A DNA stretch of 64,000 nucleotides from a virus (lineage: Duplodnaviria; Heunggongvirae; Uroviricota; Caudoviricetes): IMG/VR virus record IMGVR_UViG_2526164631_000023; one strand, 5' to 3'. Below, piece after piece: positions 14,893 to 55,093 of this stretch. Position 1 is the stretch's first letter, and each line of letters starts with the position of its first letter. The notes below the pieces were generated by a model. That model worked only from the letters and a program-made list of their open reading frames with translations. It had not been told where the DNA came from and did not search any database. Position numbers and translations under genes: made by a program.

Positions 14893-14949
14893 TAAGTTAC
14901 CGTCATGTTGTGAATAAAGTTTACGACAGTGGATATCCGGCTTTTTTTC

Positions 14950-15050: not shown

Positions 15051-15089
15051 GAATAGTGGTTAAAGCCTTATGTGGCGCGGCCTGAAGAG

Positions 15090-15160
15090 CTACGGGATCT
15101 ATTTGGTACTATATGGATCTAATCAGGATCTATATATTGGATCTATCCTGTGGATAAAAA
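15090..15160. promoter_or_regulatory. oriR core: GATC repeats and a DnaA box
   Basis: gggATCTatttggtactatatgGATCTaatcagGATCTatatattgGATCTatcc then TGTGGATAA (reverse complement TTATCCACA) at 15149-15157. Confidence 0.65.
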
Positions 15161-15243
15161 AGAAGAATTACAAAGCTCCACCCAATTTCACACACTACCT
15201 ATCCTCCAACGAATAAACAGACATCTGCTTATCGGAGGAATAC

Positions 15244-19949: not shown

Positions 19950-19954
19950 TACTG

Positions 19955-21756: not shown

Positions 21757-21766
21757 TGAGGTTAGC

Positions 21767-30241: not shown

Positions 30242-30265
30242 TGTATTAATGTTGGTTTAAGAGAA
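30240..30265. other. Second gix/cix-like site (site C), same orientation as site A
   Basis: AATGTATTAATG TT GGTTTAAGAGAA; right half and next ~130 bp identical to site A flank. Confidence 0.4.
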
Positions 30266-31229: not shown

Positions 31230-31556
31230 ATGTTTGCAGATTATGAAAATCTGGCTGTAGTAGTCATAACATCCCTACTAAGTGGAACCGGCGTATTCCT
31301 TCTCGGAGTTAGAGACGGGCGCATTTCTGCGTCCCTGCTCAATCTTGCGAGTGAATTGTTTACTGCGGTAACAGCCGGGCTTGCGGGGTATGGGGTGGCG
31401 GTTAGCCAAGAATGGCCTGAAGGTATCATTTTCTGCGTTGTTCTGATTGCCAGTAACAACGGTAGTGAAATTTTACAGGGCTTAAAGTCCAGAGCTAGTA
31501 ACGTCTTGAATCTCTTAAGCGTAATAGCGAATGGGGGAAAAGGTGGAGAGAAATAA
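31230..31556 (+). CDS. Holin-like small membrane protein (P1 LydA position)
   Basis: 108 aa with hydrophobic segments; SD ggagggg; first gene of a long rightward operon. Confidence 0.4.
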   Translation: MFADYENLAVVVITSLLSGTGVFLLGVRDGRISASLLNLASELFTAVTAGLAGYGVAVSQEWPEGIIFCVVLIASNNGSEILQGLKSRASNVLNLLSVIANGGKGGEK

Positions 31557-32002
31557 TGGGTAACTTTGGAAATTATTTCATTTTTATCATGGCATTTGTT
31601 GCCATCATTGACCGTTTCATTTTTCGTCGCAAGAGTGTTGAGATTTTGAGTATTGGTGACGCTGTAGTGAAAGAATCCGCTATAGCATTTCCTGTTTCGC
31701 TACGTGTTAAGCGAAGCTGGGTCAGCAATGCTCAAATCGAATATTGGTTGCAAGACCTGAAAAATCCATCTGTGGTTATTTCAGGGAAAACGCGACCAGT
31801 TGACGCCTCAAAACGCGGTGAGAGAGAAGAGTATTTGCTCATCGATACGAAATATCTTGAGCCAACGAAGTGGGATCTGAAAGTCACATTGACTAACGGT
31901 AACTGTCGACTGAATCCGCTTTATCGCATTTTCCCTATCAATGACTGCATAGAGCGCCAGTTTACGATCGAAAAGCGTGAAGGAGACTGGGATGTCAAAT
32001 AA
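31556..32002 (+). CDS. Membrane-anchored protein (P1 LydB position; possible antiholin)
   Basis: 148 aa, N-terminal hydrophobic FIFIMAFVAIIDRFIF; start overlaps previous stop. Confidence 0.35.
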   Translation: MGNFGNYFIFIMAFVAIIDRFIFRRKSVEILSIGDAVVKESAIAFPVSLRVKRSWVSNAQIEYWLQDLKNPSVVISGKTRPVDASKRGEREEYLLIDTKYLEPTKWDLKVTLTNGNCRLNPLYRIFPINDCIERQFTIEKREGDWDVK

Positions 32003-32612
32003 GAATAATTATGTTCTTCTTAATTATGATGAGTTAAACGAAAAGGGGCTGTCAAAACTCGTCAAAGAAATCAGCAAAGGTGGTTACAAGATAGCGAGGG
32101 TGATCCCTGCAAGTAATGGCAGGAAGAAAGATGGGATCATGACGCGCACGTTTACCCTTATTGGTATTGATGAACAGACAATGGAAGTTCAGGTTAACGA
32201 TACCGGTGATATATCTGGGATCAAACTGAATGGTAAAACAGTACCGTTCAAGCCAGTAAAAACAATGTCGGCTTTGGGGCAATCTCTTGCGGCTTTATTT
32301 AATCGCGGAGCAACTTCTTTCCAGAAGTCATTAGCTCGAAAACTTGCTCGTGCAGCAAAAAATATTGATGACGGAAATAAGAAGCGGCAGGGAGTTAAAT
32401 CTAACGCTCAGAAATTAGCTGAAGCGAAAGAATCACGTGATGCACTCCGTGAAGATATCGCTAATGCTAACGACAAACTGTCTAAACTCCAGAGCAAGTC
32501 AGACAAAGTAATGCAAGATACGGGTAATGTTAAAGCTGCCTTGTCTCAGGAAGTAGCTAAGACACGTGCTCTTAAAGAAGAAATCGCGCGCCTGGAGGAT
32601 GAGCATGATTAA
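31992..32612 (+). CDS. Coiled-coil protein (P1 Hdf position)
   Basis: About 206 aa from internal ATG (MSNKNNYVLL); track ORF starts 31977. Confidence 0.3.
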   Translation: MSNKNNYVLLNYDELNEKGLSKLVKEISKGGYKIARVIPASNGRKKDGIMTRTFTLIGIDEQTMEVQVNDTGDISGIKLNGKTVPFKPVKTMSALGQSLAALFNRGATSFQKSLARKLARAAKNIDDGNKKRQGVKSNAQKLAEAKESRDALREDIANANDKLSKLQSKSDKVMQDTGNVKAALSQEVAKTRALKEEIARLEDEHD

Positions 32613-34541
32613 CAATCCTTTACGAATTAATATTCAGTCTACTTTTGCTGATACGATCCCCGGCTATATGCCAAGTCGCTGGTCTTCAGAAGAATTAAGC
32701 GAAGATGACCTGATTTTTGAGGCGGCGACCTTAGAAGATATTGAGCTTGCCTATATGGGCAATGAAATTCTGGTTGTGTCTGACGAAGCTATGTTTGAGT
32801 CCATAACTACAACCAGAATTCGGTTAGCTCAAACAATGCGAGCTTTCGTCCGTGCGCTGAATCGTGGCCTGAATGGTACGAATATTATGGCAGGGACTGA
32901 TGAAGCCGGGACCGATGAAAATGGACGTAATTGTATTGGTGGTGCGATTATCGGTCGTGTACGTCGGGTAGCTAATATCCCTGTTTTGACCGCGCAGATA
33001 CCGCTTACTGACGGGCAGAGTACAAGCATAATTTTCCACTCTCCAACAGCTGACGGGGCAAAAATAAAGAGTAACGACGAGCTTGTTGCATTTCAGTTTT
33101 TACTTAATAAGCGTAACGTAACTCACGTTGTCGCCCCGATTGGTGGGAGAGATGTTTCTTTAAGCCAGGTATGCCAGGCGCTATCTAATTTGATTGAGCG
33201 TAACAGCGAAAAATTTAAGAAGGCAAAAGAGCGCCAGGACAAAATGAAGGCAGATATTGAGAGTTATCTCAATGAAGCAGATAAACTGGCAGAAGAACGG
33301 TCAATAATGATTGATCAGGTGGACGTTGCGCAACGTGGGCTGACTGAAAAGCGTGCTGCTCTTACGGAGATGCAAAAAAACTTGATGCCCAGAAAGCCAT
33401 CAACGAGGAATTACAAGCAAAACGCGATAAATTGTTGTCTGCTAAAGGTGAAAAAACGAAAGAACGAGCGTTTAGCGACCAGCTGCGACATGTAAAACAT
33501 AATCTTGCCATTGACGGAAAAACAGTGCTGGATAATGGCGCTGAAGTTAATTATGTCACGTCCGGCAGTGACAATTTCGTTACGATAGTAGCACCTGAAG
33601 GTAAATTCAGTATTGATGCCAGTGCTGTCAAAGGAGGCAGTTTGGCAGATGCTGCAACCAAATTACTTAAAGCCTACCGAGAGCATAACGCAGATAAATA
33701 TAAAGTTGATGTGTTACCAGGCCAGCAGGAAGACCCCGAACCACCACAGACAGACCCCGAGACGAACCCAGTATCACAACCAGAGAGCCAGGATGTAGGT
33801 AAATACCACTATGCACTTCAATCTCGCCCGGCTGGTGTTGGTGCTGTGCCGGATGGAAATAAAGCCGTGCTTGATCGTCCTGACCAGGCTGATCAGTATT
33901 ACGAATATGCTCGTCACGGTATCATTACGTATGACCGTAAACTGACAGATGAAGAAGTCAGCCAGTACGAGTTGCTCTATCTTCCTGATGAAGATGAGCT
34001 GAAAGATTTTGCAGGCCAATTGGTTGTGTCCAGCATGTCGAAACATATTGATGGCTATGTAGACCTGTTTGGCAGTGACCTGAAAACATTCAAGGCGCAA
34101 GTGAAAATTCTTTTCCGCAAAGCGTTTCCAAACGTGGCGTATCCACTTGGTGATGGGGAGAACCTTTTCATTATGGACGTATATAACGCCCTTCAAAATC
34201 ATTCAAACGAAGTAACGCCAGAGCCTGAATTAGCACCTGTAGTTGAGCCAGAATCACACCCACAAACAGCACCAGAGCAACAGCCAACGCCGGAAGACGC
34301 TGAAGAAGCGGCAACTGAAGCTGATCAGGAAGCAGATAAAGCACTGGAGTACCTAAAATCCGTCCCGGTGCAGTTTACATCTCGCGATCTGACGGTAATC
34401 AGTGCCGAACTTGACCATGTGCAGGAAGCTGCAAACGCTCTTATCAGTGCTGGTCGATACGACGAGAACGAATCAACGGTTGGCGCAGCAGTTGACTACC
34501 TGATCAACATTCTGGCTGAAATTCAGCAGGGAGGTGCTTAA
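32604..34541 (+). pseudogene. darA-like virion antirestriction/head gene split by +1/-2 frameshift in an A7 tract (33374-33380)
   Basis: ORFs 32566..33495 and 33432..34541 overlap in different frames; one extra A gives a continuous ~645-aa protein (..TEMQKKLDAQKAINEELQAKRDKLLSAKGEK..), size close to P1 DarA as remembered. Confidence 0.5.
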
Positions 34542-34915
34542 TGACTATCTCTGTTTTAGACCGTCTGAAATTGGGTAAAGAGCTATCAGATTTAATGCAG
34601 GCGCAGAAAACCGCGCCAGTATTACAACGCGTCGCCATTGGTAAGCAGATTGTTGATCTGATGCTTAAACTGGGGTTGGGTACTGCCGCTCAACCGATGT
34701 CGGAACCGCAACCACAACCACAGTCTGATCCTGTTGCAGATGAAGTTCCTAAGATAGTGACTGACTTCCTGGGCGGCGTGTTCACAAAGTCCACACAAAT
34801 GGAATTTATTGATGCGCTGCGTGGGATCTCAAACTATGTTGGCGAGTTCCTTACGTTGGAGCAGGCTAAAGAACAGACCATAAGCTGGGTGAAAGCCAAC
34901 GGTTATGCCGGGTAA
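34541..34915 (+). CDS. Hypothetical protein (P1 DdrA position), 124 aa
   Basis: ATG overlaps upstream stop; followed by a terminator. Confidence 0.3.
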   Translation: MTISVLDRLKLGKELSDLMQAQKTAPVLQRVAIGKQIVDLMLKLGLGTAAQPMSEPQPQPQSDPVADEVPKIVTDFLGGVFTKSTQMEFIDALRGISNYVGEFLTLEQAKEQTISWVKANGYAG

Positions 34916-34918
34916 TCA

Positions 34919-34941
34919 AAAGGGGGCGAAATGCCCCTTTC
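34919..34941 (+). terminator. Intrinsic terminator after the holin/darA-like operon
   Basis: aagggggc gaaat gccccctt then T-rich tcacttctctgttctc. Confidence 0.5.
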
Positions 34942-34997
34942 ACTTCTCTGTTCTCACATAAATCACACTCTTTTTACACTCACAGCTTTCTCTATAG

Positions 34998-36395
34998 TTG
35001 GAGTGTATTTTGAACAAATCAGTTACTTCTGCGCTTTCCGAGGCCGCAGATATTAACAGCGTCATTGCTCTGGTTTCTTCATTAGAGAGGAAAGAAACAC
35101 GCCTGGGGCGAAGTAGCTACGTAGTCACCAGCAAAGGTGCAGAGGTAAAGACGGCTTTTAAGGTCGTTGATGCCAGCAGTCTGATCATTTCGAACAACCT
35201 TGACGGTATGATTAACCCGGCCTTCCCGGAAGAACTCCAACCACGAGATCGTACCCGGCTATCCAGCAAACTCCAGGTTAACCGTATTGCCTCCAATTTA
35301 CGCCCGGCACAATTAACGGATTCCGGTATGAGCAGCCACGGAGCGCCGATAGTTGGTCCGGACAACGTTGTTGAATCCGGCAACGGAAGGAGTATGGGTA
35401 TCTGGCGTGCCTATGAGCAAGGACAGGCGGATGAGTATCGCCAGTACCTGATCGACCATGCGAAAGAGTTTGGTCTGAATCCTGACGAAATTTCGCAAAT
35501 GTCTATGCCCGTACTAGTGCGAGAAAGACTCACAGATGTAGACCGCGCTCAATTTGCCCGCGATTCAAACATTAGCGATCTGCAAGAGATGGCAGCAAGT
35601 GAAAAAGCGTATGCGGATGCGCAATTTCTCACTGAGAGCGTCATGGCGCTATTTAATCCTTCAGATGATGGAAATCTGCTGGCGCGGTCCAATGATGCGT
35701 TTATTCGTGCGTTTTTGCGCGAAATTGGCGATACAGCGACGGCAGGCTTGCTTACTGCCGATGGGCGTCCCACGAAACAGCTTATCGATCGCATCCAGAA
35801 TGCAATTTTTGCCAAAGCGTACAAGGATGAAAGGCTTGTTCGGCTAGTGTCGGAAGAGCCAGATCCGGAAATGCGTAATATCCTGACCGCATTAAATACG
35901 GCAGCCAGCGATTTTGCGCAAATGCAGTCGCTGTCTGGCGACGCTCACCATGACGCAGTAACAGGCTTAGTGGACGGTATAGAGCAGGTTAATGGCCTGG
36001 ATACACAGGCGATAGCAGCACTCCAGGAAGCAATTAATCTTGTACGTGAAGCCAAAGACAACGGTCAGGCCGTTGAAGAAGTGATCGCCCAAAGGGGGTT
36101 ATTCGGCGACAGTACACCGGAAGCTGAGGCATTGGCGTTATTCATCGTAGCAAATAATCGCAGTGCGAAGCGTATGGGGGCAGCATTCAAAAAAATGGCG
36201 CAAAAAATCAACGACGAGCTGACTCATAAACAACAGGCATTGGGCGATATGTTCGGCGGTGGCGATGTTGATCTGCGTCGTATTTTGTCTGCTGTATCTG
36301 ATGAAATTGAGGGTGAATTTGGCGAAGGGAAAGGTCTGAACTTTGCTATGTTTGAAAATTCTACAGATCTAAATAATTGCCGTACGGAAAACTAA
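34998..36395 (+). CDS. Hypothetical protein, 465 aa (start uncertain)
   Basis: ORF only; upstream AAATCACA late-promoter-like motif. Confidence 0.3.
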   Translation: MECILNKSVTSALSEAADINSVIALVSSLERKETRLGRSSYVVTSKGAEVKTAFKVVDASSLIISNNLDGMINPAFPEELQPRDRTRLSSKLQVNRIASNLRPAQLTDSGMSSHGAPIVGPDNVVESGNGRSMGIWRAYEQGQADEYRQYLIDHAKEFGLNPDEISQMSMPVLVRERLTDVDRAQFARDSNISDLQEMAASEKAYADAQFLTESVMALFNPSDDGNLLARSNDAFIRAFLREIGDTATAGLLTADGRPTKQLIDRIQNAIFAKAYKDERLVRLVSEEPDPEMRNILTALNTAASDFAQMQSLSGDAHHDAVTGLVDGIEQVNGLDTQAIAALQEAINLVREAKDNGQAVEEVIAQRGLFGDSTPEAEALALFIVANNRSAKRMGAAFKKMAQKINDELTHKQQALGDMFGGGDVDLRRILSAVSDEIEGEFGEGKGLNFAMFENSTDLNNCRTEN

Positions 36396-40387: not shown

Positions 40388-40731
40388 GATGTTTCTAAAT
40401 CGGAATGTATGATCTGCATCATCGACTGAAGTCATCCATTGCTGAAATTTTTAGTTGATCTTCCATGTTTTCAGGCTTATATTCATGTCGTCGTAGCAAA
40501 TTCTGCGACCGGGTTTAGCAGCCTGAATACGAATGCGGACAACCGCAGATATCCGATATTGCGGTATTTTTGTGTCCGTAAAACCACGTTACGCCCGAAT
40601 TATGGTGGGGCGTGATGGGGAGGCTTCGGCCTGCTGGTTTCATTCGTGCCAGTCTGCTAACCCCGTCACGTCCTGCCACCCGTTTAGCAGCGGGTGCGCA
40701 GGTTGTTAAACCTACGAATGAGGCCGTAACT

Positions 40732-40956: not shown

Positions 40957-41663
40957 TGGATATCTGCATTCTTGAAAAGCCATCAATGACCAGCATTGAG
41001 ATCGCGGAGCTGGTGGGAAAACGTCATGACAATGTGAAGCGTACCATTGAAACATTAGCCGAATCCGGCGTTATTGTTCGTCCTCAAATTGAGGATGAAC
41101 CAAAAATAGATGTAATGGGGCGTTCTCGATTAATTCAGGTGTTCCGATTTAGCGACGAGCAAGGCAAACGAGACAGTATCATTGTAGTCGCACAGCTTTG
41201 TCCTGAGTTTACTGCCCGGCTGGTGGACCGCTGGCGCGAACTGGAAGAACAAGCACGCCAGCCGTTGACCGAAATAGAGATGATCGCCGCAATGGCTGCA
41301 AATGCAGTTCAGCAGCAAAAGCGGCTTCATGTTGTTGAGTCAAAGGTTAGCCAGGTGGTAGAAACCGTCGAGCAAATCAAGAAGGGCAACATGCCGGAAG
41401 GTTACATTGGCTACCGCCAGCTGGCGGCAAAATGCGGCCTGACCGAAGCCAAATGTCGCAACCTGGTTAACGCTTACCGGATTCCCACCGATACACATGA
41501 GTTTTTAACTCCAGAGGGGGTATTGTCGCGTCGTTCCATCGTGGCCTTATCTCCCTTCATGAATGCTTTTAACCGGATGATGTCGGAGGCTGAACACCGA
41601 GGAAAACGCTGGTATCACCCCAAAATGGGGCAATTCCAGGTGATCGGTTGGGGAGGTGAGTGA
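40956..41663 (+). CDS. Rha-family phage regulatory protein / antirepressor-like
   Basis: N-terminal MTSIEIAELVGKRHDNVKRTIETL typical of Rha domain; ATG at 40956 with SD ggagg. Confidence 0.6.
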   Translation: MDICILEKPSMTSIEIAELVGKRHDNVKRTIETLAESGVIVRPQIEDEPKIDVMGRSRLIQVFRFSDEQGKRDSIIVVAQLCPEFTARLVDRWRELEEQARQPLTEIEMIAAMAANAVQQQKRLHVVESKVSQVVETVEQIKKGNMPEGYIGYRQLAAKCGLTEAKCRNLVNAYRIPTDTHEFLTPEGVLSRRSIVALSPFMNAFNRMMSEAEHRGKRWYHPKMGQFQVIGWGGE

Positions 41664-41860
41664 TGGACATCATGCAGGCGGTAAAAAAAATCAGGGAAGG
41701 ACATGCTGAAGTGTGCCGCCGTAAAGCATGGAGTGTTGGTGTATGGGCCTGGCCTGATAATTACTCTACTACCGGATGGTTTTGTATTAATGGACTCCAG
41801 ATCCGGGAAGTTGATTTATCGACGGCTGATATAGTCGGTAATGATTGGATCGTGACTTGA
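41660..41860 (+). CDS. Small hypothetical protein (66 aa)
   Basis: ORF overlapping previous stop. Confidence 0.25.
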   Translation: MMDIMQAVKKIREGHAEVCRRKAWSVGVWAWPDNYSTTGWFCINGLQIREVDLSTADIVGNDWIVT

Positions 41861-41892
41861 AGCGTGATGCCCCGGCCTGGCCGGGGCTTTTT

Positions 41893-42378
41893 TCATGCCT
41901 CATTAGTTGAGGTTGCTGCGTCTCCGACTGGTAACAGAGCGGTATTGCGTGGTTCGCCAGCAGGCCAGCGATAGCCAGACACTCTTGATGTTGGGAATGC
42001 GCGAATATTAACCGCATCCCCCTGGTTCCCACCCAGGACAAGCAGATCGCCATTGGCGCGGCGTCCGACAACGAAGCCTACGTGCCCACCGCCTACGCGG
42101 GTAAATACAACGATACATCCGTATGCCGGTGTATCTAATTTCTCGCCCCAATCCAGATAGGATTTTGCCGACTCAAATCTTGTTGAGCGGATGCCTACAC
42201 GTTCCAGCATTGCACCGACAAATGCTGCGCACCACGGCGTTTCATCGTCTTTAATTCCGCCGCGCTTGATGTCGCGCCAGAACTGAACGATTTCAGGGTT
42301 GTGTTTAGCGCCTTTTATTTCAGTCAGGCCAATGTGCTTACGGGCTTCAATTAGCCAGCGAGGTTCAATGTTTGCCAT
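41893..42378 (-). CDS. CHAP/NlpC-P60-like Cys-His peptidase domain protein
   Basis: ETPWCAAFV (Cys) and GGHVGFVV (His) spacing typical of CHAP-type hydrolases; divergent from the DarB-like gene. Confidence 0.45.
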   Translation of the reverse strand: MANIEPRWLIEARKHIGLTEIKGAKHNPEIVQFWRDIKRGGIKDDETPWCAAFVGAMLERVGIRSTRFESAKSYLDWGEKLDTPAYGCIVVFTRVGGGHVGFVVGRRANGDLLVLGGNQGDAVNIRAFPTSRVSGYRWPAGEPRNTALLPVGDAATSTNEA

Positions 42379-42453
42379 ATTTTTCTCCCGGTCATGGGTT
42401 AATAAGTAGGCAAACTATGGGGAGTATGTGATTTTGACGGTAGTATCGTCCCC

Positions 42454-45400
42454 GTGAAAATAACATTCTCCATACCCTCTCAACCGTACCGCATAGCGGA
42501 ATTTTTACGGTTTAGAGGGGGAAATCCTTTGGACAAACTACTTCATTCAATCAGTGAAGCCTCCAGCTTAGGCGAACTGATTGAAATTGTTAGTCGGTTG
42601 CATAAATTACGAGCTGTTGCGACCTTTGGCGTCAGGAAAGCCGATGGCGTCAGTATTCAGAAAACACGCCGGGCAGCAAACAATGCCGCAGTAAATCTTC
42701 TTAATTCCCTTCCGCCCGGCTTCGATGGGGCGAAATTAACTGACGAACAACGTCAGATTCTTGCCGGGTATACCGGTGAAGGCGGCCTGACAGATGGTGA
42801 GGGCAGCCAATACGAATACTACACGCCACAGTTTATGGCTGAAGGTATATGGGATCTGTTTGCTGGCTACGGTATTGATGGCGGGCACGTACTGGAACCA
42901 TCAGCGGGCACAGGTATTTTCCAGGAGACAAAACGACAGGGCATGATAATGACCAGCGCCGAACTGTCTCCGATTTCCGGTCGAATAAACCAGCTTTTGC
43001 ACCCGGAAGACGATGTGAATATCGGGGCGTTTGAGGCGCTGGCGGCGAAAGACGCAATGTATGATCACGCTGTTGGTAACGTACCGTTTGGTGAAGGGCG
43101 TTCCGGTGTCGCCGGGCTTGATCCGGCATATGCAAACGAGAAGAACGTTGGCAATTACTTTGTGCTGCGCACGATCGACAAGGTTAAGCCTGGTGGGCTT
43201 ATCGTATTGGTGGTGCCGAATGGCATGACCGATGGTGCGAAATATAAAAAATTGCGCGATAAAGTCAGCCGTAAAGCGGAATTTTTGGGCGCGCATCGTA
43301 TGCCTTCCGGTACGTTCAGTGAATCAGGTACAGATACCGTGGTGGACGTATGGGTATTGCGTAAACACCCGGAAGCCTTCCTGGAGATGATCCCCGATAC
43401 GGATGATTCGACGCTCAAATCGGCAAACGTCCTTTGGGATACCTTCCTCAAAGGAAAATGGTTTACAACCGAAGGGAAGCGATTTGTTTACGGCGACATG
43501 GAACGTACCAGCTTCCGCAATACCCTGGTGGTGAAAAAAGACGGTCGTGTATCCAATGAGTCGATGAAAACCGCGCTATCTCGTCGCTTTGATAGTCGCA
43601 TCAATTGGGATTTGCTCGGCGTAACTACTCAGGCATGGCAGGGCGCGAAAGTGGGCGATAAACGCCTTGTAGGCGGTATCTGGCATGAGTTTGATGGTCT
43701 GAAATGGGTTAAGGACACGACAACCAAATCCTCCGCGCTTGATGTAAGTCGATATGGTGTTTCGACGTTTGGCGATCTGCAGATCGCGTTTCAGTCAACA
43801 AATGGCATTCTGGCTTTGTCATGGGACCAGATATCGGCGATCGCGTCTGACTATCCATCGGTTGTCAGTGATGAAGTGGCAGCAATGATTCGCTTTGCTG
43901 GCAAGCAGCGAGAAAAAGACAGGGAGCGCGTTATGCGCGGTGCACTGATAGGTCAGTTGATCAACAAGGCACTTGATTTGCGTAACCTGGGGGTGAACGT
44001 TGATGACAAACTGGCAGATGCATCCCGCCTGGCGGCAGCAGAAGTTGCGAAGTATGGACCACCGCACGCGATTAAGCTGAATGGGCTTGCTGAAGCTGGC
44101 GCTAAAAACTGGATGACGTTCACTGGCAATGTGAAACAGGATGGTTCCACTTCTGACCTTCTGGCAGGGCGACTTGATGTAACGGATGGTGCTGCCGGTA
44201 TTGACTTTACGCGTCCTGAACAAGTGATAGCACATCTTTTTAGTGATGTAGCCCTTAATCCTATAACGCTGGGCGACTTTCGTGAGGCGTTTGCTGGTGA
44301 ACTGCCAGAGGACGACGACGCGGCCCTTGAATACCTGGCGAAATTTGATGATATCGCTATTGATGGGTATGGCTGTCTGCTGCCGATGGACCGCGCCACC
44401 AGCGGCGATGTTGCAACCAAAACAGCACTGCTGATGGGCTGGCGTGATGCGTCAACAGGTGAGCAGAAAGCGAACTTTGAGCGTCAGTTGGCGAAAATCG
44501 AAGAGAAACGTATTTTCACGCCACTAAATAAAGTCACCGTTAATCTGAATGCCCGCTGGCTGGATCGCCGCTTGATAAAAGAGTTCCTGGCAGAGCAGGG
44601 CTATGACGAGTTTAAGTACACTGAACCTGATCTGAAGGTCGTCGATGGCATTCTGGTATCTCCGGACGATTACGAAGGTAAGGACGGGGTATTTACCGGC
44701 TATCAGCTACGAACCGTAAACGGCAAAAACGGGAATGAGTTCAAGAAGGCCAACAATAAAGACGGCTTCCTGAACCAGTTAGAAAACTACCTGAACGGTG
44801 TTAAACCGCGTGGGCAGAACGCTAACGAGTACCTGGATAAAATTGCTCAACTGGAAGTTAGTTTTAACGACTGGTTACGCACTCACCCGCAGGCTGATCA
44901 GATAGCCCGCGAGTATAACGACGCATTCAATGGTTTCATTCCGTTCACGCATTCTGACGCACCGCTTGGCCTGGAAGGGCTTAGTGGAAAGCGCATTCCT
45001 CTTACTTATCAGAATGAAGAAGTTCGGCGCTTGTCAGAAGATGGGCGCGGCATCATGGGATTTGGTACCGGGCTGGGTAAAACCACGACCGCGCTTGCGC
45101 TTGAGGCGTATAACTTCGAAACAGGTCGCACTAAACGCACGTGTATTGTTGTTCCGAAGGCGGTTTATCAGAACTGGTATCACGAGGCACAGAGTTTCTA
45201 CAGTGCTGATGCCTTCGCCAATATGATGTTTATCGGTTTGGATGAAGTTCGTGATGACAGCGGAAATATTCTGACCGCGCCGGTGCTTGATGAAAATGGC
45301 GAACCACGCCTCGACAGTAACGGGCAGCCTCTTACCAGAAATGTTGTGAAAGAGTCCGCCAGCGCCGTTATCGTTCAGCGTATGAACATGATCCCGTCGT

Positions 45401-48400
45401 CAAATTGGCGAACGGTCATCATGACAAAAGAACAATTCGCGTCTATCCCGCTACGAGAAAAAACCATCGAGGAGAACTCACAGCAAGCTGTCTTTAATGC
45501 TGTGGAAATGGGGCGTCTTGACCTGGCGTCCGGTAAACACCGTGATGCGCAGAAGAAGAACAAGATTAAGGATCAGGCCGCGAATACCGGTACAACGAAG
45601 AAGCAGAATATCCCGTACTTTGAGGATATGAACTTCGATAGCGTGATTGCCGACGAGGGGCATAATTACCGCAACTCCTTTAATGCCGGGCGTGAAGCGG
45701 GACAACTGGCATATTTGCCTAACCCGGCAGTATCCAAGATGGCCCGCGACATGGCTGTAAAAGCTGCGTACATGATGAAACGCAACAACGGGCGTGGTGT
45801 AGTCATGCTGACGGCAACTCCGCTGGTGAACAGTCCGATTGATGCCTTCAACATGCTGTCTACTGTCATTCCGCAGGAAGAGTGGATGCGCATGGGTATT
45901 GTTACGCCGGATGATTTCGTTCGCGTGTTCGGCAAAACAGCCACAGTTCAGGTTCAGAAAATTTCCGGTGAGGTGGAAGAGAAGCAGGGGCTGGTGGGCT
46001 TCCAGAACCTTGATGGTCTGCGTGGTATTTTCCACCGTTGGACCACTCTGAAGACTGCCGCAGATGTCGGAGCGACGGTTAAAATTCCCGATATCATCGA
46101 GAACACCTTGCAGATCCCGATGACAGGGGAGCAGGAGGCTGCTTATGAAGAGCTTCGTAAGCGTGCTCAGGAGTTAAGTCGCAATGATGAGCTGACAGTC
46201 GATGAAAACGGGCATATCACTAACGACAAACCGGATGATTTCATCTTCTCCATCATCCGCGACATGGATAAGGTTGCTATAGATCCGGATCTGTATGCCA
46301 GTGCGATTACATTCCAGTTCCCCGTTGAGCTTGCAGACAAGGTAAAAGCTATTGCTGATGCCCTGCCAAAAGTCGCAGGCGGTAAAGTGGCAGATGATGC
46401 AGACGAGGCCGAAGAAGACGGCGCTGGTGGACTGGTCAGTACGCGTACCAGCAAGGTAGTGAAGACCACCTTTAGTGAACATCCGGCGCATGTTGAAATA
46501 CGCGCCAGCATTGAACTGGAAGCTGAAATACTGAAGGCCATTGCTGCCGCCGGGATTGATCTGCAGCAGGTATCACACCCCATCCCACCGAAGTATGCCG
46601 CGCTGATCGAAAACCTTCGTGAAGGTCTGAAGAACGGTAAACAAATTGTCTTCATTGATGAAAAAGCCCAGCACCAGAAGCTGCGCCGTATTATCGCCAG
46701 TGCACTGCAAATGCCGGAGCAGGAGATAGGCATTATCAATGCGACGACCGTTAGCCAAGCTGGCGGCATCAAGCTGAAGAAGGTGAATAAACCGACTGAA
46801 CCTACTCCGAATAAAAACGGTGAATACAAAGAAGGGGCATGGGAAACCTACTACAGCAAACTTGCCCAATATGAGGATTATCTCTCAGCTAAAAATGATG
46901 CTGGCCTTGAGGGCATGGAAGGTATTGCCGCCGACTATAACGAAGGTCGCACGCGCATCATAATCTGTAACAAGAAGGCTGAAGTAGGTATTAACCTGCA
47001 CATCGGGACAACCGATATCCACCACCTGACACTACCCTGGACACCAGCCAGTATCGACCAACGAAATGGGCGCGGTGCGCGCGTAGGGTCACCGCAAGAG
47101 AAGGTCAATGTTCACTACTATTGTGGCAAAGGCACATTCGATGACTTCCGTCTGGATACGCTTAAACGTAAGAAAGACTGGATCAAGATGGTGATGACCT
47201 CCGACATGTCAGAGATCGCCAATGGTGATGCGGATGATGCTGATGAACGCGCCATTATGCTGGCGGCAAACCCGGAAGAACGCCGCGCAATCATGGCTCG
47301 CCAGGCGCAAGAGCGTGAAGAACGTCTGAAACTGAAAGCACAGCGCGAGGCCAACAATGCTCTCGATATCTACCTGAAAGCGGCAAACGCCGCCGGAAAA
47401 GATATCGGCATGATGGAGACAGAACTGAAAAGCGCGATGGAACAGATAGAGTATTACCAGCGAAATCTTGACGACCTGATAAAAGCGGGTACGAACAGGA
47501 ATGGGCAAAAATACGCGCTTGAGCAGTTGAGTAGCTACAGAAAACGTGCGCGGGTGCTGCGGTTTGCGATCACCAGGGCAAAAGACGCGGATACCATAAT
47601 GAAACGCTCTCGTGGTGATGTGGAGCGCGCTATTAAGTCTGGTGTGCTGGATATCAGTATCGATGTTATTCAGAACCCACAGGAATATATGCGCACTGAC
47701 AAGAATATCCTGTTGCATAAAGGTAGTTATTACCGTGCAGTCATTGATGATCGCGAAACAACAGCGATTGTCCGGGTGGAAAAAATTGACGGTGAAAAAG
47801 CACAATACCTCTGCCGTATCGCCTGGCTGGATAGAGCAAGTCGTTACGCTCGAGCACCGGGGTCAATCATTACATTGCCGTTTGACTCTGTGATTGAAGC
47901 GGTAACTTTTGAAGAGGGGGTAGCTGAATCGCGCGCAACGGCTGCGCGAGGTGTTCAGTGCCACCAGCTATCAACAATACTTACTCGCGATCAGTTCTAT
48001 GATGCTATTCGCAATGGGGTAATGAATGTTATTGCTGGTAAACCTGGTAATGCATGGGGCGGTGGGTCAGCTATTAAATACTGGGCATATCGCACAGATG
48101 ATGGTCAGATCGCGCTGTCATCGGCCTATGATGGCGTGATAGGCCAAAAAATCGGGCGAGCATCGGATATAGCACCTGAGCGATGGATATATCCTGATGG
48201 CAACGACGAGGCGCTGAAGCGTGAAGTGGCAAAAATACAAGCCAGTGATAACCCGCTGAATATCGTGGACGGCGAGGGATTCCTCCAGGCATTGTATGGG
48301 TATGATTACATCCAGGGAATGCAGGCATGGGGCGCACAGGCAACGATGGATGATGTTGCCCAGGAGTTCGAAAACTGGATGGCTGGGCGTGGTCTGTCAG

Positions 48401-49365
48401 GTCGTTCGCTTAATAAAGTCACTTCTGAAGATATTCTTAGCTTGTTCCGCAAACCGTCCGGAGAAGGTCTGGAATCATTCTGGAGGACCGTGCTGGCATA
48501 CCGTTTATTCCAGGGCAGGATGAAAGCCTTTAGCAATATCGATGATATTGAACGGATGTTTAATCAGGTCAAGATCGCGAAAATTAAGGCGAAGATCGAA
48601 AAAACACGTTCTGCGCTGGTGGCCTGGCGCGATGCATTGTTTGAGCAATATAAATCACTCAGTGATGCAGATGGATGGGCGGCATTGGAACAGCTGGCGA
48701 ATAATGGGGTAGATGGAGCGAAACTCGCCATTGTTCAGGCTGATAACCCCCTGGAATCACCGGCAGCACAGTGGATTAAGGTGGGGGCTGTCATCAATGC
48801 ATTTGATGAAAAACACATTAGTAAGGACGATTTTGCTGATGCTGTTTCTGTTAATCGCCTGGTAGAAATGGCTACCCGCCGCGCCCGTGAGTTGAAAGAC
48901 GGCGACTATGTGAATGAGTTGCCGGATACGCTCAAATCGGCAACGTGGCAGGACTATGTATCGCTGAAAAACGGCGGGGCCACTGAATCAGAGATCGCGG
49001 AAAGGCTTGAGCAGGCTGAAAGCAAAAGAGAAGAGCAGGCGGCAGTGGCTGAAGCCAGAGCTGATGAAGCGGCGAATGATGACTATATCATTGTGGTTAA
49101 TGATAAGCCGATTCGCGCTAAGGCGCGTGTTCGCGGGCGCTGGTGGAGCGTCAGCGAGGACGTTGGCGCGGTTTATCTCATTGCCGACCAACCAGGTTCC
49201 TCGACAATACGGAACGCCAAAGACGCGATTAAGAAGATTGGCGGGCGTTTCTGGAATTTTGAAGCAAACCCGGTTGCTGATGTGAACTTTGACCGTCCTG
49301 CATGGATGGTATCTACGCGTTACTCGGTAGATGAACTGCGTAAAATAATCGCCGATGCGGCCTAA
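42454..49365 (+). CDS. darB: DarB-like giant antirestriction protein: N6-adenine methyltransferase plus SF2 helicase (2303 aa)
   Basis: MTase motifs VLEPSAGTGIF and VGNVPFGE; helicase GFGTGLGKTT and DEGHNYRN; size close to P1 DarB as remembered; start uncertain. Confidence 0.75.
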   Translation: MKITFSIPSQPYRIAEFLRFRGGNPLDKLLHSISEASSLGELIEIVSRLHKLRAVATFGVRKADGVSIQKTRRAANNAAVNLLNSLPPGFDGAKLTDEQRQILAGYTGEGGLTDGEGSQYEYYTPQFMAEGIWDLFAGYGIDGGHVLEPSAGTGIFQETKRQGMIMTSAELSPISGRINQLLHPEDDVNIGAFEALAAKDAMYDHAVGNVPFGEGRSGVAGLDPAYANEKNVGNYFVLRTIDKVKPGGLIVLVVPNGMTDGAKYKKLRDKVSRKAEFLGAHRMPSGTFSESGTDTVVDVWVLRKHPEAFLEMIPDTDDSTLKSANVLWDTFLKGKWFTTEGKRFVYGDMERTSFRNTLVVKKDGRVSNESMKTALSRRFDSRINWDLLGVTTQAWQGAKVGDKRLVGGIWHEFDGLKWVKDTTTKSSALDVSRYGVSTFGDLQIAFQSTNGILALSWDQISAIASDYPSVVSDEVAAMIRFAGKQREKDRERVMRGALIGQLINKALDLRNLGVNVDDKLADASRLAAAEVAKYGPPHAIKLNGLAEAGAKNWMTFTGNVKQDGSTSDLLAGRLDVTDGAAGIDFTRPEQVIAHLFSDVALNPITLGDFREAFAGELPEDDDAALEYLAKFDDIAIDGYGCLLPMDRATSGDVATKTALLMGWRDASTGEQKANFERQLAKIEEKRIFTPLNKVTVNLNARWLDRRLIKEFLAEQGYDEFKYTEPDLKVVDGILVSPDDYEGKDGVFTGYQLRTVNGKNGNEFKKANNKDGFLNQLENYLNGVKPRGQNANEYLDKIAQLEVSFNDWLRTHPQADQIAREYNDAFNGFIPFTHSDAPLGLEGLSGKRIPLTYQNEEVRRLSEDGRGIMGFGTGLGKTTTALALEAYNFETGRTKRTCIVVPKAVYQNWYHEAQSFYSADAFANMMFIGLDEVRDDSGNILTAPVLDENGEPRLDSNGQPLTRNVVKESASAVIVQRMNMIPSSNWRTVIMTKEQFASIPLREKTIEENSQQAVFNAVEMGRLDLASGKHRDAQKKNKIKDQAANTGTTKKQNIPYFEDMNFDSVIADEGHNYRNSFNAGREAGQLAYLPNPAVSKMARDMAVKAAYMMKRNNGRGVVMLTATPLVNSPIDAFNMLSTVIPQEEWMRMGIVTPDDFVRVFGKTATVQVQKISGEVEEKQGLVGFQNLDGLRGIFHRWTTLKTAADVGATVKIPDIIENTLQIPMTGEQEAAYEELRKRAQELSRNDELTVDENGHITNDKPDDFIFSIIRDMDKVAIDPDLYASAITFQFPVELADKVKAIADALPKVAGGKVADDADEAEEDGAGGLVSTRTSKVVKTTFSEHPAHVEIRASIELEAEILKAIAAAGIDLQQVSHPIPPKYAALIENLREGLKNGKQIVFIDEKAQHQKLRRIIASALQMPEQEIGIINATTVSQAGGIKLKKVNKPTEPTPNKNGEYKEGAWETYYSKLAQYEDYLSAKNDAGLEGMEGIAADYNEGRTRIIICNKKAEVGINLHIGTTDIHHLTLPWTPASIDQRNGRGARVGSPQEKVNVHYYCGKGTFDDFRLDTLKRKKDWIKMVMTSDMSEIANGDADDADERAIMLAANPEERRAIMARQAQEREERLKLKAQREANNALDIYLKAANAAGKDIGMMETELKSAMEQIEYYQRNLDDLIKAGTNRNGQKYALEQLSSYRKRARVLRFAITRAKDADTIMKRSRGDVERAIKSGVLDISIDVIQNPQEYMRTDKNILLHKGSYYRAVIDDRETTAIVRVEKIDGEKAQYLCRIAWLDRASRYARAPGSIITLPFDSVIEAVTFEEGVAESRATAARGVQCHQLSTILTRDQFYDAIRNGVMNVIAGKPGNAWGGGSAIKYWAYRTDDGQIALSSAYDGVIGQKIGRASDIAPERWIYPDGNDEALKREVAKIQASDNPLNIVDGEGFLQALYGYDYIQGMQAWGAQATMDDVAQEFENWMAGRGLSGRSLNKVTSEDILSLFRKPSGEGLESFWRTVLAYRLFQGRMKAFSNIDDIERMFNQVKIAKIKAKIEKTRSALVAWRDALFEQYKSLSDADGWAALEQLANNGVDGAKLAIVQADNPLESPAAQWIKVGAVINAFDEKHISKDDFADAVSVNRLVEMATRRARELKDGDYVNELPDTLKSATWQDYVSLKNGGATESEIAERLEQAESKREEQAAVAEARADEAANDDYIIVVNDKPIRAKARVRGRWWSVSEDVGAVYLIADQPGSSTIRNAKDAIKKIGGRFWNFEANPVADVNFDRPAWMVSTRYSVDELRKIIADAA

Positions 49366-49401
49366 CAGATAAGGAGCGGCCCCAACCGGGGCCGAATTTG
49401 A

Positions 49402-49836
49402 ATGACGACATTAATTGACACTGTAAAACCGACGGAATCCTACCTTGATGACAATTTGCCGCAGGCGCTCAATGGCAGGAGTGAAGAGGCGTTTCTGGAT
49501 GCATATCTGAATGGCATGGTGGAAAGGCTGAAACGAGATCCACAGCTTTATCACCTTTATGGGCCGTGGTGGCCTGCGCTTAAAACGTTATTGCTGGAGC
49601 GCGGCGACATATCATTTGGACAAGTTGTAGATAGTGATGTGGCAGAGATCTACAAAATGAGTCGCCCGGCGCTTACGGTTTTGGCTGGGCATCTGTATTC
49701 GAGCGATCGCCTGGAAAATGACGCGGTATACAATCCTGTTCATGCTCTGGAAGTCGCACCTTATGCCGATGATACAGAGCCATACGTGTACACAAGTTAC
49801 GACGAGTCTATAGAGAAATATCGAATCATGGGGTAG
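49402..49836 (+). CDS. Hypothetical protein (144 aa)
   Basis: ORF only. Confidence 0.3.
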   Translation: MTTLIDTVKPTESYLDDNLPQALNGRSEEAFLDAYLNGMVERLKRDPQLYHLYGPWWPALKTLLLERGDISFGQVVDSDVAEIYKMSRPALTVLAGHLYSSDRLENDAVYNPVHALEVAPYADDTEPYVYTSYDESIEKYRIMG

Positions 49837-53798: not shown

Positions 53799-53874
53799 GA
53801 TGGTGTAGCTCAGTAGGATAGAGCAGCAGCCTTCTAAGCTGTCGGTAGGTGGTTCGAATCCACCCACCATCGCC
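53799..53874 (+). tRNA. tRNA-Arg (anticodon TCT)
   Basis: Hand-folded cloverleaf: acceptor gatggtg/caccatc, T-arm ggtggTTCGAATccacc, anticodon loop cTTCTAa, 3' CCA encoded. Confidence 0.65.
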
Positions 53875-53879
53875 AATTT

Positions 53880-53967
53880 AGGGGAGTTAGTCCGTAGGGG
53901 TAGCGGGGTAGACTGTAAATCTACTGTCATTGCGACTCGGGTGGTTCGACTCCATCACTCCCCACCA
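53880..53967 (+). tRNA. tRNA-Tyr (anticodon GTA), long variable arm
   Basis: Acceptor ggggagt/actcccc, anticodon stem-loop gtaga-cTGTAaa-tctac as in E. coli tRNA-Tyr, T-loop TTCGACT, CCA encoded; D-arm irregular. Confidence 0.55.
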
Positions 53968-53971
53968 AATT

Positions 53972-54047
53972 GCCGGTTTAGCTCAGTTGGTAGAGCAGTC
54001 GCTTTGTAAGCGAATGGTCAGCGGTTCGATCCCGTTAACCGGCACCA
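53972..54047 (+). tRNA. tRNA-Thr (anticodon TGT)
   Basis: Acceptor gccggtt/aaccggc, D-arm gctcAGTTGGTAgagc, anticodon loop tTTGTaa, T-loop TTCGATC, CCA. Confidence 0.65.
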
Positions 54048-54501
54048 ACACAACAGGTAAGAGCATTTGTAGAGTTCGACTCTCTACCGTGGGCTTTTTC
54101 CCGCGATGCGAGCCATAAATGCTCTTACCGTTGTGATGAAGTGCAGCTCTTTGAAGCAACCAGAAGATAAGCATCTGGCTTCACAACATAAACCGCAGGA
54201 ACGACCAATAAACGGTAGTCCGTATGGAGAACACCCCGTTGAGGAAGAGGTCTGGCCGGAACCGTAACCGGCACTACAACGTTGAGAACACTGGCGTAAC
54301 GGGGTCATATCCCAATCTACGAATAAATGTTGCGTTGCAGCGTGACAACCAGTGTTCTCAACATTGTGGTGAATGCGCAGGCTGATGCGCGAAAGACATT
54401 GCAGCTATTGCGGAAAAGAGCTGTTCGGCGGGGCAATTAAACGCCCGTGAGAGTCTGAAATAACCGCAAGCCGGAGATCAGCACCGGTCGCCACAATAAC
54501 G

Positions 54502-54588
54502 GGAGAGTAGGGAGCATGGTGCTCAAGCGGTCTTGAAAACCGTCCCATTGCGCAAGCGATGATGGTTCGATTCCATTACTCTCCGCCA
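54502..54588 (+). tRNA. tRNA-Ser (anticodon TGA), long variable arm
   Basis: Acceptor ggagagt/actctcc, anticodon stem-loop gcggt-cTTGAaaa-accgt (as in E. coli serT), T-loop TTCGATT, CCA. Confidence 0.55.
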
Positions 54589-54879
54589 GTGCAACGTTAA
54601 GAGTATTTGGCTAATTAAGCGAATGCCGGAAGCAGAACCGGATCACCAAATGCGTACAGGCGTCATCGCCGCCCAGCCAGCCAAGTGCTCTTACCATTGC
54701 GGTGAATGCGGCTAAGCGCACGCGGAACAGTTAAAACAGTAAAGGTGGTCTTTTTACTGGCGTAACGAGAATCCATAAGTGATCCGGCGTTAATTGTTAA
54801 CTGGTTAACGTCACCGGGAGGCACCCGGCACCGCAACCTAACAGCAATGGCGTTTTGTCTTAAAAGGTGGCTGCAAGTG

Positions 54880-55008
54880 ATGGATTTTTGGGCGTTTGCC
54901 GATAAAAACCCGGAGTGGACATTATTGTTTCTGCTGGTGGTTGCATACGGGGTAGAGCAAGCGGCAAAAGCCTTACGCGGTTCTGGCAAAAAGCGTAAGC
55001 GTAATTAA
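54880..55008 (+). CDS. Candidate small hydrophobic peptide (42 aa) between tRNA-Ser and tRNA-Ile
   Basis: SD aaggtgg 9 nt upstream of ATG; MDFWAFADKNPEWTLLFLLVVAYGVEQAAKALRGSGKKRKRN. Confidence 0.25.
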   Translation: MDFWAFADKNPEWTLLFLLVVAYGVEQAAKALRGSGKKRKRN

Positions 55009-55017
55009 CAGTAATCT

Positions 55018-55093
55018 GGCCCTTTAGCTCAGTGGTTAGAGCGGGCGACTCATAATCGCACGGTCACCGGTTCAAGTCCGGTAGGGGCCACCA
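55018..55093 (+). tRNA. tRNA-Ile2 type (anticodon CAT, ileX-like)
   Basis: ggccctttagctcagtggttagagc..gactCATAAtcgc..ggttcaagtcc..aggggccacca is near-identical in layout to E. coli ileX as remembered. Confidence 0.7.

Follow-up and report, generated by a model that had tools for sequence, protein, structure and literature searches.

At positions 41,893 to 49,365 of a 64,000-nt stretch of viral DNA (hereafter the window) lies a locus that probably comprises two independent late genes, a homologue of the phage P1 anti-restriction gene darB and, on the opposite strand, a gene for a CHAP-type peptidoglycan hydrolase, with a 150-bp divergent control region common to both. The CHAP protein is most likely the soluble endolysin of the phage and happens to abut darB rather than acting as a partner of DarB; nothing ties its gene functionally to DarB.

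Identity of the element

The window comes from a D6-like phage-plasmid of E. coli, of the P1 family. Over positions 41500-49800 it shares 98.7% identity with phage D6 and 100% with two E. coli plasmids, and this 8.3-kb block is near-complete in 113 PLSDB plasmids. Gene order and orientation are the same in phage D6 (MF356679; Gilcrease & Casjens 2018), pYU39_89 and pDEC12A-1, the DNA of the locus is 98.7-100% identical across D6 and the D6-like plasmids, and the D6 proteins match those of the window at 99.1% identity without gaps for DarB and at 100% for the CHAP protein (tblastn). The window departs from D6 elsewhere, in mosaic tail-fibre, replicon and tRNA regions, and also by a frameshift in darA. 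The locus itself is already known: the GenBank entry for D6 describes orf15 as "similar to P1 darB" and lists orf16 as a "putative peptidoglycan hydrolase".

Start codon and homology of darB

Both open reading frames named in an earlier sequence-only reading of this DNA are real and appear in the ORF list, one of 161 aa from an ATG (41893..42378, minus strand) and one of 2303 aa from a GTG (42454..49365, plus strand). The length of 2303 aa given there stands as that of the longest possible ORF but not as that of the gene product, which starts at TTG 42529 and has 2278 aa (darB homologue, D6 orf15; 42529..49365, plus strand). TTG 42529 is almost certainly the true start, because it lines up with Met1 of P1 DarB, is preceded by a GAGGGGG Shine-Dalgarno sequence and is kept in divergent relatives, and because a conserved promoter-like element lies downstream of GTG 42454. 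GenBank and RefSeq both place the start at this TTG, 25 codons downstream of the GTG, and the RefSeq coding sequence comprises the same 6837 nt.

The suggestion that the giant protein is DarB-like is borne out by end-to-end similarity to P1 DarB at 40% identity (BLASTP, about 2250 aa in about 2370 alignment columns, E = 0), by an identical set of Pfam hits and by the presence of ulx as the next gene. The product also matches phrog_1685 end to end. The two DarB proteins are similar in length (2255 aa in P1 and 2278 aa in the window) and share the methylase and SNF2 helicase architecture with identical catalytic motifs, but they are only 40% identical overall and about 20-25% identical in the C-terminal 680 aa.

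Domains of the predicted DarB protein

Methyltransferase and helicase functions had been read from motifs, and the domain search found both families in the giant protein. Its Pfam matches are SNF2-rel_dom, ResIII, Helicase_C and N6_Mtase/Eco57I, with N6_Mtase at 20.3 bits against a cut-off of 20.4 and Eco57I likewise under its own cut-off; P1 DarB gives the same set. Numbered from TTG 42529, the motifs are LEPSAGTG (motif I) at residue 123, NVPF (motif IV) at 184, the Walker A sequence GLGKT at 848 and DEGH at 1042, and all of those checked (TP, EPSAGTG, NVPF, GLGKT, DEGH, TATP and QRNGRGAR) are identical in P1 DarB. The N6-adenine methyltransferase domain (42808..43458, plus strand; residues ~94-310) is recognized by TP, LEPSAGTG and NVPF together with the sub-cut-off Pfam matches, and this region is 50-55% identical to P1. 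The SNF2-type helicase (44992..47328, plus strand; residues ~822-1600) contains GLGKT, DEGH, TATP and QRNGRGAR and the SNF2-rel_dom, ResIII and Helicase_C matches, and individual 100-aa blocks of it are up to 69% identical to P1.

The N-terminal 94 aa and the inter-domain stretch 298-817 match no Pfam family, even at E<=1. The N-terminus aligns to residues 1-30 of P1 DarB, the capsid-targeting sequence, with about one-third of positions identical, which is a loose similarity. The C-terminal third (47326..49365, plus strand; residues ~1600-2278) consists of a coiled coil, small beta-barrel domains and a helical domain, likewise matches no Pfam family at E<=1 and is 19-26% identical to P1. Among 1.84 billion representative sequences it has 26 relatives, all of them DarB-sized proteins or fragments, and a word-indexed homologue search returned 12 near-identical fragments only. 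An AF2 model of residues 1400-2278 has a pLDDT of ~85 over the C-terminal third; compared with the PDB by Foldseek, it matched nothing at E<=0.001, and small Tudor/KOW/SH3-like barrels appeared only at E>0.1.

A CHAP-type gene at the position of the P1 lysozyme gene

The gene opposite darB (D6 orf16; 41893..42378, minus strand; 161 aa) encodes a TIGR02594/CHAP peptidoglycan hydrolase of the NlpC/P60 superfamily, a probable endolysin. Its assignment as CHAP-like and its placement on the strand opposite to darB were both correct in the sequence-only reading, and the former is upheld by Pfam CHAP (31.4 bits, cut-off 26) and NCBIfam TIGR02594 (143.3 bits, cut-off 70.55). Residues C50, H99 and N118/Q119 are invariant in an alignment of 28 sequences. 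PP101 orf21, SCUT-S3 gp003 and PM-CJR gp062 are 48-66% identical to the CHAP protein, have the same Cys-His-Asn/Gln residues and are of similar size. The AF2 model (pLDDT 86) most closely resembles the NlpC/P60-type folds of MepS, LytE, Tse1 and the endolysin PlyGRCS, with moderate Foldseek TM-scores of 0.4-0.55; the fold is related to that of MepS and to that of Tse1, one of the T6SS NlpC/P60 effectors (Tse1/Tae1). A PDB sequence search gave only a chance GAPDH match (E 0.2), and the protein has no Pfam match to the PF00959 lysozyme domain. It has no hydrophobic N-terminus, signal or SAR segment; the maximum Kyte-Doolittle value for a 19-residue window is 1.42, at residue 87 in the core strands.

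The co-oriented arrangement of darB and a CHAP-like gene that the sequence-only reading gave for P1 is wrong in kind. The upstream neighbour of P1 darB is the portal gene prt, which is itself divergent, and there is no CHAP gene within P1 positions 5609-36000; the co-oriented lysis-enzyme gene nearby is lyz, which encodes a PF00959 lysozyme and lies ~3 kb from darB, beyond pro-prt. With P1 Lyz, LydC, LydD and LydE as queries, tblastn found no homologue, either in the window or in the whole of D6, and the D6 annotation holds no endolysin other than orf16. In the relatives L012 and L013, the CHAP gene is convergent with pro-prt and divergent from darB, a layout that equals the P1 lyz-lydD-lydE/pro/prt block inverted, with the CHAP gene in the place of lyz. 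Since D6-like elements have no Lyz homologue and the CHAP gene sits at this inverted lyz position, we favor an endolysin over a partner of DarB.

An endolysin role has already been suggested for the D6-like Salmonella plasmid pYU39_89 (PMC6799933). Homologues of the CHAP gene occur in holin-endolysin-Rz-Rz1 cassettes of Pseudomonas phage SCUT-S3, Proteus phage PM-CJR and phage ZC01 (PMC5418858). Whereas the TIGR02594-family endolysin genes of Gram-negative phages (PP101 orf21, PM-CJR gp062, SCUT-S3 gp003 and ZC01_075) lie within holin-spanin cassettes, the CHAP gene of the window is solitary, with the ImmI (icd-ant) operon on one side and darB on the other. The window does contain the lydA/lydB holin pair, ~10 kb from the CHAP gene; no spanin genes were identified.

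Divergent control region

The 150-bp spacer between darB and the CHAP gene contains two conserved, back-to-back putative late promoters of the D6 type. That of the CHAP gene (AAATCACATACTCCCCATAGTTT; 42412..42434, minus strand) is assigned by motif class, as its putative function is, and that of darB (AAATAACATTCTCCATACCCT; 42458..42478, plus strand) lies inside the spurious 25-codon N-terminal extension. The darB box is near-identical (AAATAACACACTCCATACCCT) in two divergent relatives with differing flanks. The box upstream of the CHAP gene is conserved in L012 and L013, where the -10-like hexamer is not kept as TAnnnT. Sites of this motif class number seven in the window, against an expectation of 0.23, and each lies upstream of a late operon, although these statistics are partly circular, because the count was made on the very sites that had yielded the motif. 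By comparison, the P1 late-promoter pattern AAGTGAnT-N5-TAnnnT has three matches in the window against 3.6 expected, none of them near late genes, so that the window does not use P1-type boxes. We rejected them for the window and derived a different box instead, AAATCACAnnCT as opposed to AAGTGAyTn in P1. Both the CHAP gene and darB are predicted from their putative promoters to be expressed late.

The darB leader can form a two-tier hairpin (42482..42514, plus strand; strand folding) just 5' of the Shine-Dalgarno sequence. Folding gives this shape for the window and also for L012 and L013, with z-scores of -2.9, -1.2 and -3.3, respectively, although the sequences of the stems differ. At the other end of the CHAP gene, a terminator scan placed the intrinsic terminator of the icd-ant-orf17 operon (41869..41893, plus strand; 8 G-C pairs and T6) directly past the CHAP stop codon.

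Other Dar genes in the window

Downstream of darB is a homologue of ulx (D6 orf14; 49402..49836, plus strand), which encodes a DarB packaging helper; the product is 46% identical to P1 Ulx (E 2e-43) and matches phrog_1629, 'Ulx-like anti-restriction'. An operon of lydA-lydB-hdf-darA-ddrA-ddrB, with a short ddrB, occupies 31230..36395 (plus strand), as found by tblastn with D6 and P1 proteins and by the LydB Pfam family. Identity to P1 is 40% for Hdf, 36-47% for DarA, 33% for DdrA and 64% for DdrB, the last over the N-terminal half only. The Dar system of P1 is arranged likewise, with ulx immediately downstream of darB and with hdf-darA-ddrA-ddrB behind lydA-lydB. The two systems differ in the length of the ddrB product (~460 aa in the window and 995 aa in P1), in the upstream neighbour of darB (the CHAP gene and prt, respectively) and in lxc, which is present in P1 and absent from the window. 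In the window, darA has a 1-nt deletion at ~33374, which shortens A8 to A7 and shifts the reading frame.

Discussion

How might the two products function in the phage? For P1, the packaging order of the Dar proteins, a 30-aa capsid-targeting signal at the N-terminus of DarB and protection against EcoK and EcoB have been described (PMC9024508, PMC12810830, PMC5512222), and protection in cis against EcoK/EcoB type I restriction is known for P1 only (PMC9024508, PMC12810830). The D6-type DarB would consist of an N-terminal capsid-targeting region, an N6-adenine methyltransferase of the EcoKI/TaqI type, a SWI2/SNF2 translocase and, at the C-terminal end, a third that is specific to the lineage. 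Homology predicts that it is synthesized late and is the last to enter the proheads, and its loading would need five further proteins whose genes the window also carries, Hdf, DarA, DdrA, DdrB and Ulx. It may then be ejected with the DNA, to which it would give cis protection from EcoK- or EcoB-like type I restriction. Packaging and anti-restriction activity of the D6-type DarB are in this way predicted by analogy with P1. If it is not a homopolymer sequencing error, the darA frameshift would, to judge from P1, keep DarB and every other Dar protein from being packaged.

The CHAP protein would be a papain-like Cys-His peptidoglycan amidase or endopeptidase that lacks an export signal and would depend for access to the wall on the LydA holin, with LydB as the antagonist of LydA; it would replace the P1 SAR lysozyme Lyz, which is absent from the window. 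Its muralytic activity and holin dependence are predictions from sequence. P1 Lyz (gene 17) would be its counterpart as the lysis enzyme, and the two genes are alike in a 3'-to-3' arrangement with pro, in a late promoter of their own, putative for the CHAP gene, and in being unlinked to lydA/lydB. The two enzymes nevertheless are unrelated in fold and chemistry, Lyz being a PF00959 glycosidase and the CHAP protein an NlpC-P60 cysteine peptidase or amidase. Moreover, Lyz is a SAR endolysin, whereas release of the CHAP protein, which has neither a SAR segment nor a signal, should depend strictly on the holin. The genes lydD and lydE that follow lyz in P1 are also absent from the window.

It is conceivable that the giant protein serves not as a packaged anti-restriction protein but as a host-defence or plasmid-borne methylase-helicase, akin to those of DISARM, Zorya or BREX, with which the lysogen defends itself against incoming phages, and such a role could draw on weak HMM matches to the DrmD, ZorD, DpdE and BrxHII helicase models and on the RefSeq name, which is merely 'SNF2-related protein'. 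The scores to the defence models, however, do not exceed 44 bits, against cut-offs of 500-1100, or 38 bits in PADLOC, and reflect generic helicase motifs only. No partner genes of DISARM, Zorya, Dpd or BREX systems lie nearby, where the neighbours are phage genes, and membership among the defence SNF2 helicases (DrmD, ZorD, DpdE, BrxHII) was rejected on these two grounds. Given also the full-length homology to P1 DarB, the conserved ulx synteny and the late-type promoter box upstream of the gene, a defence function is highly improbable. A different challenge to a working DarB is that the Dar system of this element is decaying, with an intact darB orphaned by a broken darA and on its way to becoming a pseudogene. 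In addition to the A8-to-A7 frameshift, IS100 interrupts darA in NZ_CP066033.1, a plasmid that otherwise matches the window exactly and for this reason is not the same element, and some D6-like Salmonella plasmids lack the whole lysis/anti-restriction block (PMC6799933). Yet darA is intact in D6 and in the sister plasmid pDEC12A-1, loss of one base from a homopolymer is a typical assembly error, and darB is free of defects across 6.8 kb and encodes a protein 99.1% identical to that of D6, such that decay seems rather unlikely.

An alternative for the CHAP protein is that it is a virion-associated, wall-piercing tail lysin, or a Dar partner that is packaged and injected, rather than an endolysin. 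This would account for the position of its gene beside darB, from which it diverges with back-to-back late-type boxes in a common control region, and would agree with the PHROG label 'baseplate hub subunit and tail lysozyme'. In the corresponding PHROG profile the domain occupies positions 987-1146 of 1179, at the C-terminal end of large tail proteins, and many phage records bear the 'baseplate hub' label. That name, however, is a propagated family label and not evidence, and the protein is a stand-alone product of 161 aa in which tail and baseplate domains are lacking. A homologue of Sit is already annotated as the tail injection transglycosylase of the element, and D6 has no other endolysin; stand-alone homologues of the CHAP protein, moreover, occupy holin/spanin cassettes. 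In L013, the CHAP gene is parted from darB by a toxin-antitoxin pair and one further ORF and is still beside pro. We therefore regard a virion-borne role as improbable and retain the soluble endolysin as the preferred reading.

As a discovery the locus carries little weight, since its genes are already annotated and the family is common, and the RefSeq names 'SNF2-related protein' and 'baseplate hub subunit and tail lysozyme' mask the likely functions of the products. Two further, related ideas are of low probability. One is that the C-terminal third of DarB, which occurs solely in DarB proteins of the P1/D6 type and is about 22% identical between P1 and D6, is a specificity module that chooses which restriction or defence systems are countered; the other is that a late-promoter box for Lpa peculiar to the D6 lineage (AAATCACAnnCT) and a structured leader of darB time the synthesis of DarB relative to the endolysin from a single bidirectional control region. 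If the C-terminal third does have such a role, the D6-type DarB would counter different host systems than P1 DarB does. The diverged C-terminus and the Dar set with its half-length DdrB offer a natural comparison for how DarB blocks type I restriction. On the side of lysis, an unrelated, cytoplasmic endolysin of the CHAP type appears to have taken the place that the SAR lysozyme has in P1, at the equivalent position of the D6-like phage-plasmids, which would be a clean non-orthologous replacement while the framework of lysis and its regulation is conserved.

A DarB homologue of the P1 type with a predicted downstream start codon

The open reading frame at 42454-49365 (plus strand, GTG start) does encode a giant methyltransferase-helicase, with Pfam matches to SNF2-rel_dom, ResIII, Helicase_C and N6_Mtase/Eco57I, the N6_Mtase and Eco57I matches both lying slightly under the curated cut-offs; P1 DarB returns the same five matches. 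The DarB-like assignment was borne out by an end-to-end alignment with P1 DarB at 40% identity, in which the catalytic motifs are common to both proteins: TP, motif I (LEPSAGTG) and motif IV (NVPF) in the methylase, and Walker A (GFGTGLGKTT), DEGH, TATP and QRNGRGAR. Measured in 100-residue blocks, identity peaks at 69% in the helicase, is 50-55% from the N-terminus through the methylase and falls to 19-26% in the C-terminal ~680 residues. The archetype of the methylase plus SWI2/SNF2 "dyad" is P1 DarB (PMC5512222) and, judged by sequence, the window DarB is a dyad of this type. Assignment to the defense-system helicases DrmD, ZorD, DpdE or BrxHII was rejected, the matches being confined to motifs (scores no higher than 44 bits, cut-offs at least 500).

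The C-terminal third of DarB matched no family in a Pfam search, and its relatives among 1.84 billion representative proteins numbered only 26, all DarB-sized or fragments. An AlphaFold model from an 11-sequence alignment is fairly confident over this third (pLDDT ~85) and predicts a long coiled coil, beta-barrel modules and a helical domain; a Foldseek comparison of this third with the PDB gave no match at E<=0.001.

The sequence-only reading gave DarB 2303 aa. That frame is present, but 2303 aa is the maximal length, and five lines of evidence point to a predicted start at the TTG at 42529, for a protein of 2278 aa. Met1 of P1 DarB pairs with codon 26 of the maximal frame; GAGGGGG lies just 5' of the TTG; both GenBank and PGAP use this start; the same TTG and Shine-Dalgarno sequence are kept, despite diverged upstream DNA, in two divergent relatives carrying darB and the CHAP gene (L012, from a Raoultella plasmid, and L013); and the stretch from the GTG to the TTG contains a promoter-like conserved element. 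The choice bears on capsid targeting, whose signal has to lie at the N-terminus. Next to the Shine-Dalgarno sequence, the darB leader folds into a two-tier hairpin (42482-42514) of the same shape in the window, L012 and L013, with stem sequences that differ among the three; the hairpin may contribute to mRNA stability or to the control of translation.

A putative endolysin replacement beside darB

The neighboring gene (41893-42378, ATG start) is on the minus strand, opposite to darB as originally described, and the CHAP reading of its 161-aa product holds, with a Pfam CHAP match and an NCBIfam TIGR02594 score of 143 bits (cut-off 70.6). This very large family gave 5672 matches, and Cys50 (PWC), His99 (GGGH) and Asn118/Gln119 (GGNQ) are invariant in a 28-sequence alignment. 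The closest folds to the model (pLDDT 86), at moderate TM-scores, are MepS and LytE, which are NlpC/P60 peptidoglycan endopeptidases, the T6SS amidase Tse1 and the CHAP endolysin PlyGRCS. Past the catalytic domain, the C-terminal ~15 residues (41893-41940) form a tail, LP-x-G-x-A-x-x-S-x-x-E-A, that is kept in the family, with P150 and E160 invariant and a low-confidence structure prediction.

The sequence-only reading contrasted this with a co-oriented arrangement in P1. No CHAP homologue was found in P1 5609-36000, and what lies upstream of P1 darB is prt, the portal gene, transcribed divergently; a co-oriented CHAP gene therefore does not exist in that interval. The co-oriented lysis gene of P1 is lyz, ~3 kb from darB, which encodes a PF00959 lysozyme unrelated to CHAP. 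The P1 order is lyz-lydD-lydE (plus), pro-prt (minus), then darB-ulx-lxc (plus), whereas that of the window is prt-pro-repL-icd-ant-orf17 (plus), CHAP gene (minus), darB-ulx (plus). The CHAP gene stands 3'-to-3' with pro in L013, and only repL separates the two in L012. Read from gene order, the arrangement corresponds to an inversion of the P1 lyz/pro/prt block in which the CHAP gene occupies the lyz position. At 40477-40683, an Rfam C4 antisense RNA (72 bits) and an a1/b1 target element lie upstream of icd-ant; they belong to the ImmI immunity region, the operon of which is closed by a terminator abutting the CHAP gene.

What role might the CHAP gene have? One possibility is that it forms one system with darB; this pairing was unsupported, and nothing was found to connect its function with DarB. 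The best reading of the comparisons is that the CHAP gene would be a non-orthologous replacement of the P1 endolysin. In tblastn, neither the window nor any part of phage D6 matched P1 Lyz, LydC, LydD, LydE or Lxc, and the D6 annotation includes no second endolysin. Stand-alone CHAP homologues occur in holin-endolysin-Rz-Rz1 cassettes of other phages (for one such homologue, see PMC5418858), and the CHAP gene of the D6-like plasmid pYU39_89 has already been suggested as part of the lysis functions (PMC6799933). No N-terminal hydrophobic segment was found in the CHAP protein. A CHAP endolysin would be soluble, unlike P1 Lyz, a SAR enzyme, and hence would depend on a holin, with release through LydA, antagonized by LydB.

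Probable late promoters in the spacer

P1-type late-promoter boxes are not enriched in the window. A composite element that differs from the P1 box (AAGTGAyTn), AAAT(C/A)ACAnnnT followed after 3-5 nt by TAnnnT, occurs in seven copies against 0.23 expected, a count that is partly circular, the pattern having been derived from the same sites. Each of the seven closely precedes a late gene or operon and has its orientation: gene 23 (6632), the R-S tail fibers (22648), lydA-dar (31177), ddrB (34960), prt (36407), the CHAP gene (42434, minus strand) and darB (42458, plus strand). In D6 itself the pattern also fits an eighth site (AAATCACACACTCCCTATCCT), which precedes the pmgB/sit operon; the window copy (AATTTCACACACTACCTATCCT) fits a looser pattern only. 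Within the 150-bp spacer the two boxes are back to back, 23 bp apart, and both are kept in L012 and L013, where the surrounding DNA has diverged. Placement and conservation across species are stronger evidence for the boxes than the count. We infer that the elements are probably Lpa-dependent late promoters of the D6 lineage, a reading that fits both a head-packaged protein (darB) and an endolysin (CHAP gene).

Relation to D6 and prior annotation

The 8.3 kb around the locus is 98.7% identical to D6, a P1-like plasmid prophage, in the GenBank and RefSeq records alike, and 100% identical to the E. coli plasmids NZ_CP066033.1 and pDEC12A-1; the block is nearly complete in 113 PLSDB plasmids (Escherichia, Salmonella, Shigella, Klebsiella). 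Over the window as a whole, D6 is matched in a mosaic fashion (88-98% identity), with a few unmatched segments. Megablast matches are absent or patchy at 13822-15187, 24511-27263 and 29070-30251, in the replicon-proximal region and the tail-fiber C-segment, which are mosaic, host-range-related variable regions. The window has five tRNA genes at 53799-55093 (Arg-TCT, Tyr, Thr, Ser-TGA, Met) versus three in D6 (Ser, Thr, Asn); in the D6 record (MF356679, 7145-7850) ARAGORN places these three on the minus strand and GenBank on the plus strand, probably an error of strand in the record.

GenBank labels D6 orf15 "defense against restriction, similar to P1 gene darB", orf16 "putative peptidoglycan hydrolase" and orf14 "similar to P1 gene ulx". 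The RefSeq names are less helpful, being "DEAD/DEAH box helicase family protein" or "SNF2-related protein" for the darB product and "baseplate hub subunit and tail lysozyme" or "TIGR02594 family protein" for the CHAP product. The locus is already described and hence already known; our additions are modest, comprising the endolysin-replacement argument, the D6-type late-promoter box, the darB start-codon correction and the darA defect.

Predicted DarB packaging and a possible darA defect

Directly after darB lies ulx, whose product is 46% identical to P1 Ulx, and lydA, lydB, hdf, darA, ddrA and a half-length ddrB are also in the window, ordered as in P1. The ddrB homologue (34998-36395, ~455-465 aa) matches the N-terminal half only of the 995-aa P1 DdrB (64% identity); that of L013 is full length (1015 aa). 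In P1, the Dar proteins enter the head one after another, DarB late in the sequence, with DarB entry directed by its N-terminal 30 residues and ~40 copies per virion; protection from EcoK and EcoB needs DarB and Ulx (PMC9024508, PMC12810830). Homology and synteny suggest that D6-type DarB would likewise be packaged in the head and protect against EcoK and EcoB.

The window darA (32605-34541) has lost one A from an A8 run, leaving A7 at ~33374-33380, and the frameshift truncates the protein to ~257 in-frame codons plus a short out-of-frame tail. The A8 run is complete in D6 and pDEC12A-1, where the 645-aa gene is intact. In NZ_CP066033.1, which matches the window at 100% identity throughout the darB region, IS100 (istA/istB) splits darA (18056-21952); this disruption of darA is the second in the D6 lineage and independent of the first. 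The A7 run may reflect an assembly error at a homopolymer, or the scaffold for Dar packaging may truly be inactivated. In P1 without DarA or Hdf, the other Dar proteins are all kept out of the head (PMC12810830); a genuine frameshift would leave this element unable to deliver DarB.
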